From: an uncultured Bdellovibrionales bacterium | GTDB taxonomy: Bacteria > Patescibacteriota > Minisyncoccia > Moranbacterales > UBA1568 | Direction of reading: 5' to 3' | NCBI GenBank assembly: GCA_964612055.1 | Contig: CAZTBI010000001.1 | Span: 356,824 to 420,823 of the forward strand | Length of the DNA stretch: 64,000 nt | Part shown: one piece after another, positions 7,986 through 50,692 of the stretch | How positions within the stretch are numbered: the first letter of the stretch is position 1 | How the letters are laid out: every line of letters starts with the position of its first letter | Notes under the pieces: generated by a model | Told to the model about the DNA's origin: nothing | What the model saw: only the letters and a program-made list of their open reading frames with translations | The model's database searches: none | Program-made: the position numbers and the translations under genes

Positions 7986-7999
7986 AGCAAATTCTCGTC

Positions 8000-8683
8000 T
8001 TAGGATACCTTGCTCTGTTCCAGAGAATACAAGAGCAATGCTTCAGAGACAAGAATCTTAAAGACCTCACCGTCCTCAAGATGATTTTTTGTTTTGGCAA
8101 AAATAAGAAAGGCCGCCACGCCCTGAGCTTGCTTTGGTGAACGCACCACGATATCCTCCCCTTCTTCCCAAAAAAATTTCCCTGTTGCCAAAAGCTGCTT
8201 CGGGGTGAGGGCTAGAGGAAATGTTTCTCCTCCATCTTTTTGGATCATCTTTTTCATTTCCTTCGTTTTGACATCTACAAAACACAAGGCGACATGATCC
8301 GTTTTAGAGAGGAGACTCGTCGTCTCAAGTAAAGAAGCATAGACATCGCCCCGTCCCTTCAAAAACGCCTGAGAAGCCATCTGCGGCAGGCGAAAGATAA
8401 GCTCTTTGACGATATCGAGCTTTCTATTCATTTCACCAATATACGAGTAGGAATCAGAGAGATCGCGTGTAATCATGTTGGCCTGCTTCTGCAGGTGAAG
8501 CTTCTCTCGAAACACCCGCAAAAGCGCCTTCTCTTTGGCCAAGTAAATCATGAAACCGAAGATCCCGAAACAGAAAATAAGCAACGACTCCACATCTTGT
8601 TCATGAAGAAAAAGCCAATTCTGAGAAATAAGTCTCGGAGTCAGGATAACGAGAATAAATATAACGAGATAGACCCAGTACAT
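8000..8683 (-). CDS. Hypothetical membrane-anchored protein (2 N-terminal TM helices plus cytoplasmic domain)
   Basis: 227-aa ORF tightly packed between GT4 and galU. No recognisable motif. Confidence 0.5.
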   Translation of the reverse strand: MYWVYLVIFILVILTPRLISQNWLFLHEQDVESLLIFCFGIFGFMIYLAKEKALLRVFREKLHLQKQANMITRDLSDSYSYIGEMNRKLDIVKELIFRLPQMASQAFLKGRGDVYASLLETTSLLSKTDHVALCFVDVKTKEMKKMIQKDGGETFPLALTPKQLLATGKFFWEEGEDIVVRSPKQAQGVAAFLIFAKTKNHLEDGEVFKILVSEALLLYSLEQSKVS

Positions 8684-23154: not shown

Positions 23155-24387
23155 TCAAGAGATCTCGTTTTTCGCCTTGATTTCAAGGTATTTTCGACCT
23201 TTCAATCGTTCTGGGAAATATTCCTGGGCCGCCTCTTCGTTAGTCTTAAAGTCTGGAGTATACTTGTAGCCTTTCCCATACTCAAGCTCTTTCATAAGTT
23301 TCGTAGGAGCATTGCGGAGATGAAGCGGCACTGGTTCATTCGGAAAATTTCTTACGTCCTCTTTAGCTTTTCCATACGCCACATAGAGCGCGTTTGATTT
23401 TTTGGATACTGCCAAATACACCACCACCTGAGCGAGATGCACTTCACACTCTGGCATCCCCAGCATCTGACAAGCCTGAAAAGCTGCCACCGCCTGAGGC
23501 AAAGCAAACGAGTTAGCAATACCAATATCTTCTGAGGCAAAACGCACGAGCCGTCGTGCAACATAAATCGGGTCCTCCCCCGCCTCGAGCATCCGAGCAA
23601 GGTAGTACAATGCGGCATCGGCATCATTCCCTCGCAACGATTTGTGCAAAGCAGAGATGATATTGTAGTGCTCCTCGCCATTTTTATCGTAGAGAAGATG
23701 TGAACGCTTCACCACTTGCTCGACCGTCAAGGCATCAATATGAGTCTTTTTCAACGCTGCTGCTTCAAGCGTATTGAGCGTCATTCTCGCGTCACCGCCC
23801 GAAACCGCTGCAATAAATGAGAGTGCCTCATCGGTAGCAGTGACTTCTTTTCCGAAATACTCCTTACTTTGCTTGAGCGCCTGTTGCATCAGATTAACCA
23901 GAGTCGACTCGCTGTGCTTATCAAGTACCAAGACACGTGCCCGAGAAAGAAGAGCGGCATTCACTTCAAAACTGGGATTTTCCGTGGTGGCACCAATCAA
24001 AATAACCGTACCACGTTCGACATGCGGCAATAAACTGTCCTGTTGCGATTTATTAAAACGATGGATCTCATCAACAAAAAGAATGGTCTTCTTCCCTTGC
24101 TTCTTGTTTTCTTCGGCTTCGGAAAATACGGCTCGCATATCCTTCACTCCGCTTCCCACAGCAGACAACTGACGAAATTCTGCCTGAGTCTCTTTGGCAA
24201 TCAAGAGTGCCAAAGTAGTCTTGCCGCTTCCCGGCGGGCCCCAAAAAATAAGGGAGGGTATACGATCCGCCTCAATGGCTTCACGGAGAAATGATCCGTC
24301 ACCAAACACCTTTTCCTGTCCCAAGAAATCCTCCAGCTTTTTCGGCCGTAATCGTTCAGCCAGCGGAATATATGTATTTTTATTCAT
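23155..24387 (-). CDS. rarA: Replication-associated recombination protein A (RarA/MgsA AAA+ ATPase)
   Basis: 410 aa with Walker [10 protein letters not shown] and the RarA C-terminal domain. Hairpin plus T6 terminator at ~23103-23126. Confidence 0.9.
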
Positions 24388-24427
24388 AGAGCAGAAGTTT
24401 CAAAGCGTTCATCTTTGAGTGCAAGTT

Positions 24428-24513
24428 CGAGGCGTCGGTGAGGAACTCCGTAAGCCGTACTCGTAGAGTACCGTGTCGAGTACCGGAGCCGAGAACAAAG
24501 AAATGTGCCAAAG
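24428..24513. repeat. Copy 1 of a conserved ~90-nt intergenic element (xth-rarA spacer) containing hairpin GTACTC-GTA-GAGTAC
   Basis: ~85% identical to 34221-34312 over ~90 nt. Confidence 0.7.
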
Positions 24514-24520
24514 ATGGACG

Positions 24521-25330
24521 CTAAGAGAGAATAATACCGACTGGGCAATGATCGGAGCCTAGTACCTCAGGGAGAATAAAAGCTTCTTTGATTCGCGGCT
24601 TGAGAGACTCACTCACCAGGAAGTAATCAATGCGCCAACCGACGTTGCGCGCTCGAGAATTCGCAAAGTGCGACCACCAAGAGTAGTGGCCATTCCCTTT
24701 CTGAAAGAGACGAAAGGTATCAACAAAACCAGCATCAACGAAACTCTGAAAACCTTCCCGTTCTTCGTCGGTAAAACCATGCTTCCCAATATTCCCCTTG
24801 GGATTGGCCAAATCATCTTCGGTATGGGCGACATTCAAATCACCACAAAAAATCACTGGTTTCTTTTTCTCCAAGTCCCTGCAGTAGGCCAGAAATGCCG
24901 GATCCCACTGCTTATGACGCAAGGGTACCCGACTCAAATCTTCTTTGGCATTCGGAGTATAGACAGTCACCACAAAAAAATCTTCAAACTCAAGGGCAAT
25001 CACTCGGCCTTCAGAGCACGGGTCGCCATAACCATCCGCCACCAAATTGAACTTTTTTATAATTTTTTCCGGAAAACCATTGCGAACGGAGAGTGGCTTG
25101 GTCTTGGTGAAGATAGCAGTTCCGGAATAGCCTTTGCGATCGGCAGAATTCCAATACTCCTCATATTCCGGCAGATCAATCTCAGCCTGCCCCTGCATCG
25201 CCTTGGTCTCCTGAAGACAGAGAATATCCGGTTGGTATTTTTCAATAAAAGGAAGGAATAGCCCCTTCTTATGGACGGCTCGGATGCCATTCACATTCCA
25301 AGAAATAAGAGTGATTGGTTTTTTTGGCAT
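24521..25330 (-). CDS. xth: Exodeoxyribonuclease III (Xth, AP endonuclease)
   Basis: 269 aa with EEP-fold motifs (SWNVNG, CLQETK, GDLNVAH, SDHCPV). Confidence 0.9.
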   Translation of the reverse strand: MPKKPITLISWNVNGIRAVHKKGLFLPFIEKYQPDILCLQETKAMQGQAEIDLPEYEEYWNSADRKGYSGTAIFTKTKPLSVRNGFPEKIIKKFNLVADGYGDPCSEGRVIALEFEDFFVVTVYTPNAKEDLSRVPLRHKQWDPAFLAYCRDLEKKKPVIFCGDLNVAHTEDDLANPKGNIGKHGFTDEEREGFQSFVDAGFVDTFRLFQKGNGHYSWWSHFANSRARNVGWRIDYFLVSESLKPRIKEAFILPEVLGSDHCPVGIILS

Positions 25331-32797: not shown

Positions 32798-34174
32798 CTA
32801 GTTCGCGGTCAAACCTATTATTTCAGTTTCCAAAATGCCATTCACATCCACGCTCCCAGTTTCAGTGCCATATCCGGCAAGCGATACCGAAATATCATAT
32901 GTTTCTGCAACGAGTTCCGGAAGCGCTGTCGGAAAATAAGCGTATCCGTACTGATCAGTCACTACCGTCGTGTCATATAAAAGAGTTGTATTTGTCAGCT
33001 GGACACTGGCTCCAGCAAGCCCTGTCCCATCAGCCTGATTCTGCACTTTTACCAACACCGAACCGATATTCTTATCAAGCATGATGACACTCACGTCGGT
33101 CGCGCTGCCCGCTGTCGCTGAAAATTCATTGGCAGACGTCGTTCCTGGAGACAGTTTCAAGAACTCATAGTCCGTACTGCTGGTCGTGATCGCATAATCA
33201 CCATAACTCTCGCCCGGATAACTTGCTCCTCCTGAAGCATCGGTCGTGCCCGTATCTGAAAATCCCGTCACGTCCTCTCCGGTCCCTGGATCGGTCCCCA
33301 AGACACGACCGCCCGTCAGAGTATATCCGATACTCGGAATCGCCGTACCAAATGGATCTTCTGTTGTCAGGGTAATATCGGACGACTGATCCATGACGAT
33401 CGTCTTCTGATTCAGAGCATCCGCAACCACGGAGGCATGCACATCGACCGGATTAAAGACCGAAGTCGGATAGGCAGGATAGGTCGTCGCGCCATAATAG
33501 CCGCTCTTTGAGACGGTGACCATGTATGCTTCCGTGCCAGCTGGAGCACCAGGCAGCATCAGGTTCCCCGTAGAATCCGTACTCCCCGTCACATCGACTC
33601 CGGCAGCACCGTTGACGATATGGACGCTAGCACCAGTCACGCCCGTACCACTAGCATCGAGCACATTTATGGAGAGGACTCCACCACCGGTCGATGACTC
33701 AACGCCGTTGGGTGAAAAGTTCCCGAAAATAGCTACCGTCTGATCCGTACCAAGATTTCCCCAGGACACCGTAACACGCACCCGCTTATAGTCAGTAGGA
33801 ATCACATCACCCGTAGAGACAGTGCTATCAAAACTATCGTCGACATACTGAACAAATGTATGGACCTCATAACGTATTGTATTGACGCTAATCGTCTCGT
33901 CTTCGGCCAAATCGCCAGCCGGAATACCGCTCGTTGTTCCAATAGCATCGTATTCAATACTCCGGATAATCTCCATTTTCTGATTCGCAAGCGCCGTTGC
34001 TCCAAGGCGATTTTTCGATTCGATTATGAGACGCGTCCCGACTGAGTAGGTTTGGAGAAAAACGATACTAATCAAAGAAAAGAGAAACAAGAAAACCAAC
34101 GCCTCAATAAGCGTAAAACCACGATACGAATGTCGAATTTTGAATTTTGAATTTTGAAAAAAATACCGCATCAT
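32798..34174 (-). CDS. Large type IV pilin-like protein with repeated Ig/CarboxypepD_reg-like beta domains
   Basis: Canonical prepilin motif RGFTLIEALVFLFLFSL. 458 aa with repeated ...GASV.V.NG..G...TG.TDS.G... segments. Confidence 0.7.
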   Translation of the reverse strand: MMRYFFQNSKFKIRHSYRGFTLIEALVFLFLFSLISIVFLQTYSVGTRLIIESKNRLGATALANQKMEIIRSIEYDAIGTTSGIPAGDLAEDETISVNTIRYEVHTFVQYVDDSFDSTVSTGDVIPTDYKRVRVTVSWGNLGTDQTVAIFGNFSPNGVESSTGGGVLSINVLDASGTGVTGASVHIVNGAAGVDVTGSTDSTGNLMLPGAPAGTEAYMVTVSKSGYYGATTYPAYPTSVFNPVDVHASVVADALNQKTIVMDQSSDITLTTEDPFGTAIPSIGYTLTGGRVLGTDPGTGEDVTGFSDTGTTDASGGASYPGESYGDYAITTSSTDYEFLKLSPGTTSANEFSATAGSATDVSVIMLDKNIGSVLVKVQNQADGTGLAGASVQLTNTTLLYDTTVVTDQYGYAYFPTALPELVAETYDISVSLAGYGTETGSVDVNGILETEIIGLTAN

Positions 34175-34220
34175 TTTATCTTATCCATTTTCTAAGACTT
34201 TCATTTTTTGAGGGCAGTTG

Positions 34221-34312
34221 TAGGCGTCGGTGAGGAGCTCCGTAAGCTGTACTCGTAGAGTACAGTGTCGAGCACCGGGACCGAGAACGACCAAATGCAC
34301 CAAAAAATGAGG
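34221..34312. repeat. Copy 2 of the conserved ~90-nt intergenic element (pilC-pilin spacer), hairpin CTGTACTC-GTA-GAGTACAG
   Basis: ~85% identical to 24428-24513. Confidence 0.7.
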
Positions 34313-34315
34313 GTC

Positions 34316-35536
34316 TCACTTTATGTTTTCGAGTACGGAATACATCGGCTGTAACATCGCCACCGCAAAAAATCCCACGCCACCACCGATAAATAGCATC
34401 AGGATCGGCTCAATAATCGACGACATGTTCTTGGTGATCTGCGAAACCTCTTCTTCATAAAATTCCGCCAACCGTTGGAGCACTGTTTCTGTTTTACCCG
34501 TCTCCTCTCCCACTTCGAGAATCTGCGGCACCAGAAGAGGAAAAATAGCCGGGTACTTTATAATAACTTTGGAAAGGTCGACACCTTTCTGTACCTCAGC
34601 AATCGCTTCTTCCAGGGCATCTTTGTAATACACATTGGAAAGAGTCTTTGAAACAATATTCAAAGCATTTACCACCGAGACACCGCTCTTTAAAAGTGAA
34701 CTGTAAATGCGAGCAAAGCGAGCGCAGTTCACTTTGATAACAATATTCCCCACGATAGGCATATGCACAAAGAGGAATCCAAAAAATCGCTTCCCCGCTT
34801 TCGTGCCGGAAAAAAGCTTCACCGCTACAATCGTGATAACAGCCAAAGAGACTGTAAGAATGGCGTGACCACGGATGAAGTCAGAGAGCGCCATAATGGC
34901 CCGAGTGGTAGCCGGCAACTCGACATTCATATCCTTGAACACACCGGTAATTTTCGGCAGGATATAAACCAACATGAGGATACCGATACCGATCATTGCC
35001 ACCACGATCACTGCGGGATAGATAAGGGCGCCACGCACTTTCGACAGGAGGTCATTTTCTTTTTCCAACTGCAAAGCCAAGATATCAAGCACTTCCTCGA
35101 GATTACCGCTCACCTCTCCGACGTATACCATGTTGACGAACAGCTCGTTGAAAACAGCCGGGTAGGCTCCTAATCCTTCTGAAAGCGTCTTTCCTGCCTG
35201 GAGATCATCGTTGACACTCTCGAGAATCTTCTTAAATGTCTTGTTCTTTGTCTGGAGAGAAAGGTTCTGGACCGCCCGAGAAATCGTCAACCCCGAAGAC
35301 ACCATGACCGCCAGGTTACGGGTAAAGGTCATCTTTTCTTTGAGGGGCACCTTCTTGAAACGATCAAGGAATTTCACCTGAAGACTCGATCCCTCTTCTT
35401 CTTGTTTGAAAGATGTGAGAAGAAGTCCCTGGGCACGAAGATCCTGAGCCAAAGATTTTTCATCCTTGGCCTCTATTTCTCCACCAGAAGACTCACCCGT
35501 CACAGCGTTTTTCGCCGTATAGAAAAATTTCGGCAT
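34316..35536 (-). CDS. pilC: Type IV pilus assembly platform protein PilC (GspF family)
   Basis: 406 aa with two GspF repeats and three TM segments (…GEVSGNLEEVL…, …GEETGKTETVL…). Confidence 0.85.
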   Translation of the reverse strand: MPKFFYTAKNAVTGESSGGEIEAKDEKSLAQDLRAQGLLLTSFKQEEEGSSLQVKFLDRFKKVPLKEKMTFTRNLAVMVSSGLTISRAVQNLSLQTKNKTFKKILESVNDDLQAGKTLSEGLGAYPAVFNELFVNMVYVGEVSGNLEEVLDILALQLEKENDLLSKVRGALIYPAVIVVAMIGIGILMLVYILPKITGVFKDMNVELPATTRAIMALSDFIRGHAILTVSLAVITIVAVKLFSGTKAGKRFFGFLFVHMPIVGNIVIKVNCARFARIYSSLLKSGVSVVNALNIVSKTLSNVYYKDALEEAIAEVQKGVDLSKVIIKYPAIFPLLVPQILEVGEETGKTETVLQRLAEFYEEEVSQITKNMSSIIEPILMLFIGGGVGFFAVAMLQPMYSVLENIK

Positions 35537-37125: not shown

Positions 37126-37152
37126 AAGAAAAACTCCCTTGCGGGAGTCTTT
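37126..37152 (-). terminator. Terminator downstream of uvrA (ACTCCC-ttgc-GGGAGT, T-rich both sides)
   Basis: Seen directly. Confidence 0.55.
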
Positions 37153-37153
37153 T

Positions 37154-39952
37154 CTATAAGTATTTCGCGGTAAAACTACGTTTACAGTTTTTGAGTTTCT
37201 CTGGAGGGCCAGCATAGATCAATTCACCGCCTTTTTCGCCGCCTTCTGGTCCCAGTTCCAATACCCAGTCGGAGGAAGCGATCACATCGATATTGTGTTC
37301 CACGACTAGTACCGTATTTCCTTTATCAACCAATGCTTCGAGTACTTCAAGTAGACGACGCACATCTTCGAAGTGTAGCCCAATCGTCGGTTCATCCAAA
37401 ATATAGAGCGTCTTGCCGGTTGATTTACGTGCCAGTTCAGTCGCAAGCTTGATACGTTGGGCTTCACCGCCTGAGAGATTGGTCGCGCTCTGTCCTAGTA
37501 CCAAGTAGCCCAAGCCCACTTCTTCCAGTACCCGCAGCTTCTCTTCGATCATCGGCTGATCCATGAAAAAGCGTCGCGCTTCGGTCACGGTCATTTGCAA
37601 TACATTCGCGATATTTTGACCACGGTATTCGATAGAAAGCGTTTTCAAATTATAGCGCGTTCCCTGACACACTTCACATGGGACATAGACATCCGGCAAG
37701 AGGTACATTTCGATCTTCTTCAGTCCCCCACCCTGGCAGGCCTCACAACGCCCACCACGCATGTTGAAACTGAAATGACTGGCTGAGTATTTCTCTCGCT
37801 CCGCTTCCGCGGTCTCAGCAAACAAATCGCGGATCAGACTGAAGACACCAGTGTAAGTCGCAGCATTGGAACGCGGCGTGCGACCGATAGGGTCCTGCGT
37901 CACGGCAATCACCTTGTCGATATTGGACAGTCCTTCCATTTTCTTGTGCGCTCCCGGTTGCGCCTTGGCATGATAGAAATATTTCGATAAAGCACGCGAA
38001 AGGATGTCGTGCACCAGAGACGACTTGCCTGAGCCAGAAACTCCAGAGACTGCTACCAGTACTCCAAGCGGAATCTTCACATCGACATTTTTCAGATTGT
38101 GTTCCGTAGCGCCCGTGATAGAAATGCAATCACTTCCTGGTTTACGTTTTTTCTTCTTGTCAGAAACTTTCCGCTTTCCAGAAAGGTACTGCCCCGTGAG
38201 TAATTTGGAACGAAGCAGCTTGTCTGGTGTCCCGGCAAAGATCACTTCACCACCTTCGATACCGGCACCCGGGCCCATGTCGATGATATAGTCAGCACGC
38301 TTCATGATAGCAACATCATGCTCCACGATCACCAGAGAGTTGTTAGCCGTCCGTAGGTCTTCAAGTGCATTGATGAGCCGCTCTGTATCACGACTATGCA
38401 GCCCCACCGAAGGTTCATCAAGGACGTAAATGATTCCAGAAAGTCCCGATTTCATCTGGACCGACAAACGGATACGCTGCGCCTCACCACCAGAGAGGGT
38501 ATCAGCACTGCGACAGAGTTCGAGATAGCCCAAGCCCACTTTTTCCACGGCTGAAAGTCGAGTTTGCATTTCCTGAAACAAGGGGTCGATCATACCCCGC
38601 TCCCCAGTCTTCAAAAGCATCTCGCGAAGCGGTTTCAAAATTCCCAGAAAATTCTCGGTACTGAGACGCACCATGTCGTCGATCGATCGACCGCCAATCT
38701 TCACCGCCAAAGTGGTCTGCTTGAGACGCTTTCCGAGACAGGTCGGACAGAGCTTGGTCTGCATGTAGGCCTCGATTTCAGCCCGCAAATGATCGGATTT
38801 GGTCTCACGGTATTTCTGTTCCAAAAGAGCGATAACCCCTGGGAAACGATCTTCCCGTTCATTCTTTTCACCATGCAAGATAACATCGAAATGCTTGGTT
38901 GAAAGTTTCTTGAGGGGTGTATCCAAAGAGAAGCGTTCGCGCTTGGCACACTCACGCAAGAGCTGCATCGGTCCAGATCCAGCATGCCGATCACTGTTCA
39001 TCTTGCTCCATGGACGGATCGCGCCCTCCGCAAGCGACAGACTCTTGTTTGGAATCACGAGCGCCGAATCAAATTCCAGCGTCACACCAAGACCAGCACA
39101 CTTCTGACAGGCTCCTTCCGGACTATTGAAAGAAAAATGACTTGGGGTAAATTCTGGCAAATGAATGCCGCAAGTCTCACAACGATACTCTTCGTTGTAT
39201 ACATGCTCCTCTCCCATGCCATTCAAGCGCAAGGTAAACGTCCCCTGTCCGACACGGAACGCGGTCTGCAAATCATCCATGATACGTTCTTTGTCAGGAC
39301 GAGCACGATCCAGTACGAGACGATCAATCACGACCGCTATCGGCGAGCTCTCTGTGGGAGATGCTTGCGCCAAAGCTTCCGCCAAAGAAACAATCTCCCC
39401 CCGAAAACGAACCCGCACATAACCCCACGTATTCACCAGGTTCAGAGCCTCTTTCTCAGTTTTTCCGGTAAGCTGCGTACTTTCTGAGATGAACACCAAG
39501 GCCATCCCATCAGGCAAGGCCAATATTTCTTCGAGGATTTCCCGCACACTCTTCCGAGTCAACACCTTACCGCATGTCGGGCAGTGCGGCACACCAAGCT
39601 TGGCAAAAAGAATGCGCAGATAATCATACACCTCAGTCATGGTACCGACGGTCGAACGCGGACTCCGTGAGACACTCTTCTGATCAATCGAAATAGCTGG
39701 TGACAAATTGCGGATCGCGTCGACATCTGGCTTATCGAAGCCGTCCAAGAAATTGCGCGCATACGAAGAAAGCGACTCGACATAGCGTCGATTCGCTTCG
39801 GCAAAAAGTGTATCAAAAGCAAGAGAAGATTTACCAGACCCAGAAAGTCCCGTCACGACGACGAGCGCGTCGCGTGGAATATCAACATCGACATTCTTCA
39901 AATTATTGACTCGGGCACCTCGGATTTCGATGACTGACTTTTTCGCGGCCAT
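37154..39952 (-). CDS. uvrA: Excinuclease ABC subunit A (UvrA)
   Basis: Two ABC ATPase modules ([20 protein letters not shown]), zinc-finger Cys clusters and signature LSGGE motifs. ATG at 39950-39952 (MAAKK) is preferred over the GTG at 40012. Confidence 0.9.
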
Positions 39953-48754: not shown

Positions 48755-48827
48755 TAAAAACTGCCTTTCGGCAGTTTTTATTTTGAACAAAAGAAAAGGA
48801 GGGTTGATGATACATCATCTTCCCTCC
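48755..48827. terminator. Two adjacent hairpin terminators (AAAAACTGCC-tttc-GGCAGTTTTT bidirectional; GGAGGG...CCCTCC plus T-run on minus strand)
   Basis: Seen directly. They separate the convergent plus-strand orphan ORF and the lipoprotein gene. Confidence 0.65.
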
Positions 48828-49318: not shown

Positions 49319-50692
49319 CTACTGCTTCGCCTCTGACCGAAGAAATGCTCGCGCACTCACCCAGTCTTTGACTTTCTCCTTGGTGAAGTGCCGATAATAC
49401 GGCGAGAGCCTCTGCCAAATCTGACGAATTCTCGCCGTGACAGCCCCGACCTTCATACCAAAGTATTCGCCTGCTTCTTTGTAACTTCTCGTACTCCCGG
49501 AACCGGGGAGGCCATAGCAATAGCAGAACAGCTCATGATCTCGTGTGGTAAGTCTCTCCCGAGATGTAGCCCACACCATGTCAAGCCTGGCCTGGATGAG
49601 CTCTAACCGCCCTGCCACTGAAAGGGTAGGGCTCGAATGCGTCACAGGCTTTTCCTTCCCTGCCACTGAAGGAGCGAGGTCCGAATGCGTTGAAATGTCT
49701 TCCCAGGAGAACTCACCCTGAGCGATTTCTTCGAAATAAGGAACGCCCGCCATCGCCCGTTCAAACACCTCTTCGGTGAAGATATCCTTGGGCACTTTCT
49801 TCCATATACCCTCCTTGATCTGCCGGATCCGCTCTCTTGTCAGATTGAACTGCTTCCCCGTCTCCTCAAGAGTTCTTCTCTCCCGATCAGCATCGAGACC
49901 GTAGAAATAGATGAACACATCGGAACGGTCATGCGCCATACCGGTACGGAGATACCGAATCAACAGGCTCACTTTTCTGGAAATTTCCTCCAGTTCTTTC
50001 CGAGCCTCAATGACCAAAGAAGGCTCTATGCTGTTCGGGTCGGCGACGGTATCGCTGATGGTGAGGTCTCCAGATTCTCCCTTGGTTTTCATAGGCTGCT
50101 CAAGCGAGGCCACCCCTCTCTCGTGAAGGAGGCGCAACATCTTCTCTACCTGCTTCTCCGTCAGCCCTGTCGCTGCGGCAATGTCTCGTCGGGTTGGCAC
50201 CACACCTTGAGCCAGTAAGCGCTCTTGGACATAGAGTACCTTTGAAACCAACTCTCCGACATGCGTAGGGAGACGGATGAGGCGACCCTGTTGAATGACA
50301 GCCTGAGCAATGCGTTGACGGATCCAGTAGGTCGCATACGTAGAGAACGCTGCCTTCGCCGGATCATATTTTCGAGCCGCTATCATGATCCCGATGGTTC
50401 CTTCTTGCATCAAGTCCTCAAATTCGAGGCCTTTTCTCAGGTATCGCCGGGCTATCACGTGCACCAATCCAAGATTGTGTCGAACCATCTTGTCGAGGGC
50501 GGCCTCATCTCCGACGCGGATACGCGCTGAGAGGGCATTGACCTCTTCTTGAGGAAGTACCGGGTAACGTTTCCGATCCGAAGGGAGACGACGTAGGGCC
50601 GTCTGACTATCGGAAGAAGGAGCTTCTCCGCTCAGATATCCCTCCCTCTCCAGAGAGGCCTCTGAGACGAAGTCTTGATCGACGTCTTTCAT
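49319..50692 (-). CDS. RNA polymerase sigma-70 family factor with an apparent tandem duplication of region 4
   Basis: Regions 1.2-2 (YATYWIRQRIAQAV), 3 and 4 (YFYGL...TLEETGKQFNLTRERIRQI), then a second region-4-like segment (CYCYGL...SYKEAGEYFGMKVGAVTARIRQI) at aa ~360-430. AGGAGG RBS. Confidence 0.85.
   Translation of the reverse strand: MKDVDQDFVSEASLEREGYLSGEAPSSDSQTALRRLPSDRKRYPVLPQEEVNALSARIRVGDEAALDKMVRHNLGLVHVIARRYLRKGLEFEDLMQEGTIGIMIAARKYDPAKAAFSTYATYWIRQRIAQAVIQQGRLIRLPTHVGELVSKVLYVQERLLAQGVVPTRRDIAAATGLTEKQVEKMLRLLHERGVASLEQPMKTKGESGDLTISDTVADPNSIEPSLVIEARKELEEISRKVSLLIRYLRTGMAHDRSDVFIYFYGLDADRERRTLEETGKQFNLTRERIRQIKEGIWKKVPKDIFTEEVFERAMAGVPYFEEIAQGEFSWEDISTHSDLAPSVAGKEKPVTHSSPTLSVAGRLELIQARLDMVWATSRERLTTRDHELFCYCYGLPGSGSTRSYKEAGEYFGMKVGAVTARIRQIWQRLSPYYRHFTKEKVKDWVSARAFLRSEAKQ
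49611..49690. repeat. Imperfect 32-bp direct repeat (period 48 bp) inside the sigma-factor gene linker
   Basis: CCTGCCACTGAA...CGAATGCGT occurs twice. Encodes the 16-aa repeats ...APSVAGKEKPVT / ...PTLSVAGRLELIQ. Confidence 0.55.

Follow-up and report, generated by a model that had tools for sequence, protein, structure and literature searches.

A candidate family of low-copy, ERIC-like intercistronic hairpins in Moraniibacteriota

Introduction

Several kinds of RNA hairpin are known to act from the spacers between the genes of one transcript. Intercistronic hairpins cleaved by RNase III, such as those of the phage T7 early mRNA and of rpsO-pnp, leave a protective 3′ hairpin on the upstream mRNA, the hairpins of Correia elements are likewise substrates of RNase III, and REP hairpins stabilise the upstream mRNA in operons such as malEFG. 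Elements of the ERIC (or IRU) type in Enterobacteriaceae are imperfect palindromes of ~127 bp and have been reported to alter mRNA stability through RNase E (PMC3184786). Correia elements (CREE) of Neisseria and bcr1 of the Bacillus cereus group measure 100-155 bp, are co-transcribed and form a hairpin at the RNA level, and in the case of bcr1 both compensatory base-pair changes and a non-conserved genomic distribution have been described (PMC3184786).

CPR bacteria (Patescibacteria) have small genomes in which genes are tightly packed and known repeats and regulatory RNAs are few, and in the searchable literature on structured RNAs or hairpins of CPR or Moranbacteria nothing relevant was found. 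Here we describe a hairpin element that occurs twice in a 64-kb stretch of DNA from a Candidatus Moraniibacteriota bacterium of this lineage (the whole stretch is called the window) and recurs in related genomes. Our preferred reading, on which we stand evenly balanced between acceptance and doubt, is that it represents a family of portable hairpin modules, so far undescribed and confined to Moraniibacteriota, that lie between cistrons, are under purifying selection, and act as co-transcribed RNA. The element would thus be a candidate portable module of post-transcriptional control in a lineage where gene regulation is almost unknown.

Two Copies of One Hairpin

The gene pilC (34316..35536, minus strand), a member of the T2SSF family (Pfam PF00482, E 4e-59), ends with the stop codon TGA at 34318-34316 on the minus strand, and the ATG of the next gene of the operon, which encodes a protein of 458 aa (32798..34174, minus strand), lies at 34174-34172 on the same strand. 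More pilin-like genes, together with PilX_N and PilM genes, follow on its 3′ side. The spacer of 141 nt between pilC and the 458-aa gene contains what we call copy 2 of the element, and neither an ORF of at least 60 aa nor a transposase gene was found within it. A sequence-only reading of the window had already placed a recurring element between the pilC stop and the start of the 458-aa gene, and these landmarks as well as the recurrence are confirmed: a 32-mer of copy 2 recurs at 24442-24473 with 3 mismatches (chance expectation 0.00), and a repeat search of the window pairs 24408-24512 with 34200-34304 at 81% identity. The extent then given to copy 2, 34221-34312, turned out to be too narrow, having missed the 3′ part of the basal helix. 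The covariance-model hit covers 34196..34316 on the minus strand (121 nt; 42 base pairs in four helices; 128.5 bits, E 1e-31), so that the hairpin begins at the pilC stop codon, which its basal helix encloses, and an A/U-rich tail of 21 nt (34175..34195, minus strand) leads from the hairpin to the ATG of the downstream gene. This tail, which is missing in the empty alleles described below, opens with CUUAGAAAAU and resembles the tails of copy 1 (CUUGAAAUUU). As for the 458-aa protein itself, its N_methyl prepilin motif and CarboxypepD_reg domains support it as pilin-like only, and not as the major structural pilin that it had been called.

Within the pilin-like gene, at 34135-34158 (codons ~6-13), we also observed a perfect tandem repeat of the heptanucleotide CAAAATT (coding strand; 3.4 copies, 100% matches), which falls in the pre-peptide, on the N-terminal side of the G|FTLIEA prepilin motif. 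Relatives vary at this repeat, with (CAAAAAT)x4 in L020, (ACAAAAT)x3 in L029, and one unit plus (CGACACT)x2 in L022 (related loci are given by their L numbers). Since the 7-nt unit is not a multiple of 3, the repeat is a candidate slipped-strand switch for phase variation of the pilin-like gene.

Copy 1 (24403..24524, minus strand; 129.8 bits) lies between a gene for an xth-like exonuclease of the Exo_endo_phos family (24521..25330, minus strand) and that for the rarA/mgsA AAA+ ATPase (23155..24387, minus strand). The xth stop codon TAG, at 24523-24521, falls within the basal helix, and a tail (24388..24402, minus strand) runs from the hairpin to the rarA ATG at 24387. Orthologues of this copy are present in L006, L010, L016, L044, and L045. 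Both copies of the window have the orientation of their operons, and they are ~76% identical over the whole hairpin and 84% identical in its inner part. Each copy is a single long imperfect hairpin of ~121 nt, and every copy, in the window and in the relatives, has the stop codon of the upstream gene within the basal helix and an A/U-rich tail of 15-45 nt (CUU[A/U]GAAA...) between the end of the hairpin and the next start codon. The termini are mutually complementary within each copy and vary in sequence with compensation (CAUCUUUG/CAAAGAUG, CAUUUUUUG/CAAAAAAUG, CGUAUUCG/CGAAUACG).

As RNA of the gene strand, copy 2 folds at -44.1 kcal/mol (z -5.7) and copy 1 at -39.4 kcal/mol (z -3.8), within a range of z from -3.8 to -7.0 across copies. 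The opposite strand folds slightly better (-51.0 kcal/mol for copy 2 and -53.1 kcal/mol for copy 1, z ~-6). This last result would suit a small RNA gene in its own right, read antisense to the operon, as would the persistent C.A mismatches in the gene-strand basal helix, which become G.U pairs on the antisense strand, and a promoter-like site of the plus strand at 34154-34182, which ends just before copy 2. However, shuffles yield about as many such sites (0.8 expected, 1 found) and the plus strand of copy 1 lacks a counterpart, scans at both copies found no terminator, and one invariant U-G pair of the gene strand would fail to pair in an antisense RNA. Moreover, the spacer from stop codon to tail is filled exactly, a pattern more in keeping with an mRNA insert than with a gene that has signals of its own, and an antisense gene appears to us the least probable of the readings considered here.

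Scans of both copies for promoters and terminators gave nothing above shuffle expectation, and at neither copy is there an intrinsic terminator (GC-rich hairpin with U-tract). The one sigma-70-like hit (-35/-10) on the gene strand, at copy 1, would start transcription inside rarA, and the counts equal the shuffle expectation. The internal promoter that had been suggested upstream of the pilin-like gene finds no backing in these consensus scans.

Searches for Further Copies

All PilC and PilM homologues found belong to Candidatus Moranbacteria/Moraniibacteriota, a CPR lineage, and the contigs that encode them supplied ~570 kb of syntenic loci. A covariance model (R1), built from six copies, located the element across these loci at the pilC-pilin and xth-rarA junctions only, and in the 64-kb window, with the speed filters off, it returned the two copies and no third; a weak hit at 7989-8059 is a generic hairpin inside an ORF and was set aside as noise. 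On a wider scale, 185,579 representative genomes scanned with a 19-mer yielded 16 matches, 13 of which are chance occurrences in unrelated phyla, while the remaining three are real, all from Moraniibacteriota, each between an xth stop and a rarA start, with one match per genome. DNA pattern scans returned no match in viral contigs and three in JGI metagenome contigs, all of them chance matches inside coding sequence. Comparison by blastn gave no match to phages and plasmids, and none to E. coli (5,426 genomes, 20,395 records, E ≤0.01).

Rfam 15 has no match in the window at the gathering score and nothing relevant at E ≤10 around copy 2. The long-hairpin shape led us to consider the small SRP RNA, whose apical motifs differ on reading, and 6S RNA, than which the element is far shorter; for both, Rfam was negative. 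No tRNA or tmRNA gene was found in the window by ARAGORN, which applies also to two 33-nt direct repeats at 49610-49642 and 49658-49690 (48 nt apart, 79% identity; CCCTGCCACTGAAAGGGTAGGGCTCGAATGCGT). A further direct-repeat family of the window consists of GC hairpins, terminator-like and flanked by runs of A and T, at 37128-37161 and 48755-48788 (GAAAAACTCCCTTGCGGGAGTCTTTTC and a 68%-similar copy).

Conservation of Fold and Sequence

Nine distinct copies, which come from three sublineages only and are related to one another, share one common fold of 42 pairs in four helices. In this alignment (A5), which was fitted to the model so that its pair counts are biased towards structure, standard pairs occupy 93.6% of cells compared to 83.1% in shuffles, and 18 pairs have changed on both sides compared to 9.8 in shuffles, with none of 500 shuffles equalling the observed values. 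When the partners are slid by 1-3 columns, pairing falls to 30-50%. The same fold, with 16 pairs that covary, was obtained independently by RNAalifold from a MAFFT alignment, and the four orthologous xth-rarA copies alone contain ten such pairs. The divergent pilC-pilin copy of L023, 60-69% identical to the others, keeps ~36 of the 42 pairs, one helix of 5 bp having been fully exchanged (UCGGU/ACCGA to GCAAG/CUUGC).

Hence both structural conservation and covariation persist when more copies are aligned, and in this the sequence-only reading was right: directly upstream of the pilin-like gene, the pilus operon contains an element that is conserved and structured and whose pairs genuinely covary. 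The particular stem difference that had been quoted as compensatory does exist in the sequence, but it is not a compensation between copies 1 and 2: the pair is a mismatch in copy 1 (C.C on the plus strand, G.G on the gene strand) and U-A in copy 2, and compensation appears once the orthologue of L010, with C-G, is added. The two copies do differ in a compensatory way at other pairs: the middle helix has G-C in one and A-U in the other, and the basal helix likewise C-G against U-A.

The sequence is constrained as well. Between species, the copy-1 hairpin is 85-89% identical, compared to 65-81% for the adjoining 60 nt and 65-78% for xth and rarA DNA. The inner 70-90 nt are nearly invariant and surpass the flanking coding DNA in conservation, the 3′ arm (GCUUACGGAGCUCCUCACCGACGCCU) has changed less than the 5′ arm, and substitutions cluster in the basal helix, where they are compensated. 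Such compensated basal changes, together with a nearly invariant inner part, point to long-term constraint and not merely to a recent arrival; fold and core sequence look as if they were kept by selection. We also considered a short upstream ORF that would start in the 3′ arm (AUGAA...) and rejected it, given that L010 has ACG there and a compensating change on the other arm.

An alternative is an element that works as DNA: folded into a cruciform or a single-strand hairpin, it would be the target of a recombinase, a nucleoid protein, or the machinery of DNA uptake. Both contexts would be in keeping with this, the type IV pilus being linked to the uptake of DNA and xth/rarA to its repair. Both strands fold significantly when DNA parameters are used (z -2.8 to -6.6), the wobble statistics favour neither strand (gene-strand A.C mismatches, 18 cells and ~10 events, are balanced by G.U pairs, 15 cells and ~6 events), and the patch of DNA that bears the element has apparently been exchanged between lineages, as detailed below. 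On the other hand, the element does not have the high copy number typical of uptake sequences, and its better conserved 3′ arm and asymmetric internal loops are more typical of a single-stranded functional molecule. The R″ and R′ (R-box) consensus of integron attC sites is unmatched on reading the sequence, and the element has housekeeping genes for neighbours and no integrase context, so that attC was rejected. We regard action at the DNA level as quite unlikely.

Filled and Empty Junctions

Presence of the element varies among close relatives at both sites. The pilC-pilin junction is filled in the window, L021/L022, and L030-L032, and carries the divergent form in L023-L025, while it is empty in L020, L026-29, L033/34, L036, L039-49, and L050-59, where the gaps measure 2-61 nt. 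Likewise, the xth-rarA junction is filled in the window, L006/L047/L048, L044, L045, L010/L043, and L016, and empty in L030/31, L033/34, L050-52, and L046. At empty junctions the distance from stop to start is 1-15 nt in most relatives, and 38 and 61 nt in two lineages. A genome may have both copies, either one, or neither, and most relatives are without the element at one or more of the sites. The closest comparisons are provided by L020, whose PilC protein is 100% identical to that of the window and whose junction is nevertheless empty (stop, 4 nt, ATG), and by L046, which is empty at xth-rarA and has a PilM protein identical to that of the filled L044, L045, and L047. Relative to these empty alleles, the element is an insertion at both sites, which is evidence of past mobility.

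The manner of arrival has left partial traces. At copy 2, a left direct repeat (GAAAACATAAAGTGA; 34316..34330, minus strand), formed by the last pilC codons and the stop codon, and a right direct repeat (GATAAGATAAAATGA; 34171..34185, minus strand), overlapping the ATG of the pilin-like gene, match imperfectly at 12 of 15 positions (shuffle p ~0.03-0.05), whereas no target duplication is detectable at copy 1 and its orthologues (shuffle p 0.39-0.72). The right repeat looks like a displaced copy of the pilC end that includes an ATGA stop/start overlap, which suggests that such an overlap existed at the ancestral junction and that insertion duplicated 15-21 nt of the target. Flanking repeats of this kind would also permit precise loss.

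Between the window and L020, pilC is 98-100% identical up to 24 nt before the stop codon, after which a divergent patch with an indel extends ~55 nt into the pilin gene. Conversely, the window and L030, both filled, are ~95% identical over the element and ~60 nt on each side, against ~80% in the flanking genes. The divergent patch of the one pair and the high-identity patch of the other indicate that short patches have been exchanged between lineages by recombination. Because filled and empty alleles differ in a divergent patch at the junction, the exact boundaries of the insertion are not definable from such pairs.

Two further observations were made at these junctions. Within an alignment of the window and L020 in which pilC DNA is 98-100% identical over ~1.1 kb and the PilC proteins are identical, the last seven pilC codons (window 34316-34340, L020:2430-2454) differ at 8 synonymous positions, which marks a sharp recombination breakpoint at the end of the gene. 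In L036, the xth-rarA spacer is occupied by a different sequence of 110 nt (L036:13072-13181) that is weakly structured (z -1.5) and gives no model hit, and it was not accepted as a member of the family. It has CGTCCATCT and CTTACCTCAC in common with the element and may be a decayed remnant of it.

Filled and empty sites, a long stem-loop fold, and the lack of a transposase gene are all features of MITEs; multiple dispersed copies, a further feature, were not found: the 64 kb contain two, and three representative genomes gave a single 19-mer match apiece. The most serious rival to our preferred reading is accordingly a purely selfish non-autonomous element of MITE, ERIC, or REPIN type, without any role for the host, whose hairpin is recognised by a trans-acting transposase (e.g., of Y1/RAYT type) and which survives only at the intergenic junctions of a compact genome. 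In agreement with such an element, near-identical strains differ in whether they carry the insert, and do so at both junctions, the imperfect palindrome has the size of a MITE, and copy 2 has a candidate target duplication. The copies also diverge less from species to species than the genes of the host, which is a classic mark of horizontal spread. All this is in line with what has been reviewed for MITE, ERIC, and Correia elements (PMC3184786). Its copy number, however, is one or two per genome (two in the 64 kb, and none elsewhere in the ~570 kb of related loci), every copy found is at one of two loci, and copy 1 is without a detectable target duplication. Furthermore, the termini covary while the interior is conserved, which is the reverse of terminal repeats recognised by a transposase, and the concentration of substitutions in compensated basal pairs speaks for long-term selection at a fixed site. 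On balance, a purely selfish element seems unlikely to us, though it has to be taken seriously. Were the element nothing but a selfish ERIC-like insert, it would still be the first of its kind in the phylum, of modest importance.

The same distribution bears on the function that had been proposed for copy 2, namely a dedicated regulatory leader, internal promoter, or processing site that sets the output of pilin against that of the assembly protein. The element does stand directly upstream of a pilin-like gene within the operon, and its hairpin could be a processing site. Yet the same element stands between the unrelated genes xth and rarA, and the pilC-pilin junction is empty in most relatives that have the operon, and for both reasons a role specific to pilin dosage is unsupported. 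With a promoter-like signal on the gene strand that does not exceed shuffle expectation, and with the major-pilin identity of the 458-aa protein likewise unsupported, we judge a dedicated pilin leader to be highly unlikely. A site of mRNA processing or stability at copy 2 is possible, and by analogy with REP and ERIC elements, a hairpin on the 3′ side of pilC would be more likely to act on the pilC mRNA than to raise the output of pilin.

A Possible Mode of Action

Returning to the preferred reading of a co-transcribed RNA module, the following scenario can be drawn. Modules composed of a hairpin of ~120 nt and a tail of ~20 nt would have landed at tight stop/start junctions inside operons. 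Copy 2, a paralogue of the xth-rarA copy, would have entered the pilC-pilin junction in one sublineage, apparently duplicating 15-21 nt of the pilC end, and has since probably been exchanged or lost between strains by recombination. The hairpin would be transcribed within the polycistronic mRNA (pilC-pilin and xth-rarA) and would act there as RNA. Its basal helix of ~21 bp may serve as a determinant of double-strand-specific processing or of 3′-end stability, of the RNase III or the ERIC/REP type, and would in this way separate the fates of the two cistrons, while the sequence-constrained middle section may be recognised by a trans-acting factor. In place of the original stop/start coupling, the unstructured A/U-rich tail could offer translation of the downstream gene a new landing site, and the structure might be kept for the simple reason that nothing but a compact hairpin leaves the stop codon and the start codon that follows it near each other.

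Several points weigh against this scenario. The element is dispensable in most relatives, and its high conservation compared to host genes could be a sign of the recent horizontal spread of a selfish element. In addition, the conservation of the interior sequence exceeds what a simple RNase III site requires.

A bolder version of the same idea may be put forward tentatively, and we place less trust in it than in the general reading: that the element represents a new family of functional structured RNA in CPR bacteria, with a factor-bound middle and a structure-only basal helix around the stop codon, which spreads among strains and from operon to operon by recombination or by a hairpin-dependent insertion that duplicates 15-21 nt of the target, and rewires translationally coupled gene pairs linked with DNA uptake and repair (pilC-pilin and xth-rarA). 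Natural filled and empty alleles in near-identical strains offer a ready comparison for metatranscriptomics.

Comparison with Known Hairpin Elements

Long imperfect hairpins with internal loops, located exactly between the cistrons of one transcript, are what the element has in common with the intercistronic RNase III hairpins. This likeness is one of shape and position, for those hairpins are fixed features of their operons, whereas the element is an optional insert common to unrelated operons. REP sequences and REPINs also form hairpins and are intergenic and non-autonomous (PMC3116915). REPINs, however, are doublets of a short conserved REP around a variable spacer, highly repeated and dependent on RAYT (PMC3116915), in contrast to an element whose interior is conserved and whose copy number is minimal.

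Correia elements and bcr1 come closer, with a MITE-like size and a hairpin, and the compensatory changes and patchy distribution of bcr1 resemble those of the element. They differ in having tens to hundreds of copies, conserved terminal repeats, and target duplications of 2-5 bp, compared to one or two copies, variable termini, and, at one site only, a possible imperfect repeat of 15-21 nt. With ERIC/IRU elements, the shared features are size, an imperfect palindrome that forms a long RNA hairpin, a position in transcribed intergenic spacers within operons, presence or absence between related strains, and an unusually high sequence conservation. The element nevertheless shows no sequence similarity to them (blastn against 5,426 E. 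coli genomes) and no TA target duplication, and it differs in its far lower copy number, its covarying termini, and its CPR host.

In sum, the element most resembles the ERIC/Correia/bcr1 class of MITE-like intergenic hairpins, judging by these analogies. As its termini vary in sequence between copies, though they stay complementary within each, a short target duplication is not clearly seen, the copies number one or two, and there is no homology to ERIC, we describe it as ERIC-like in its presumed working and do not file it as a member of that class. The best reading is that a CPR phylum has a new family of ERIC-like hairpins with few copies per genome, and not that copy 2 is a pilin-specific leader.
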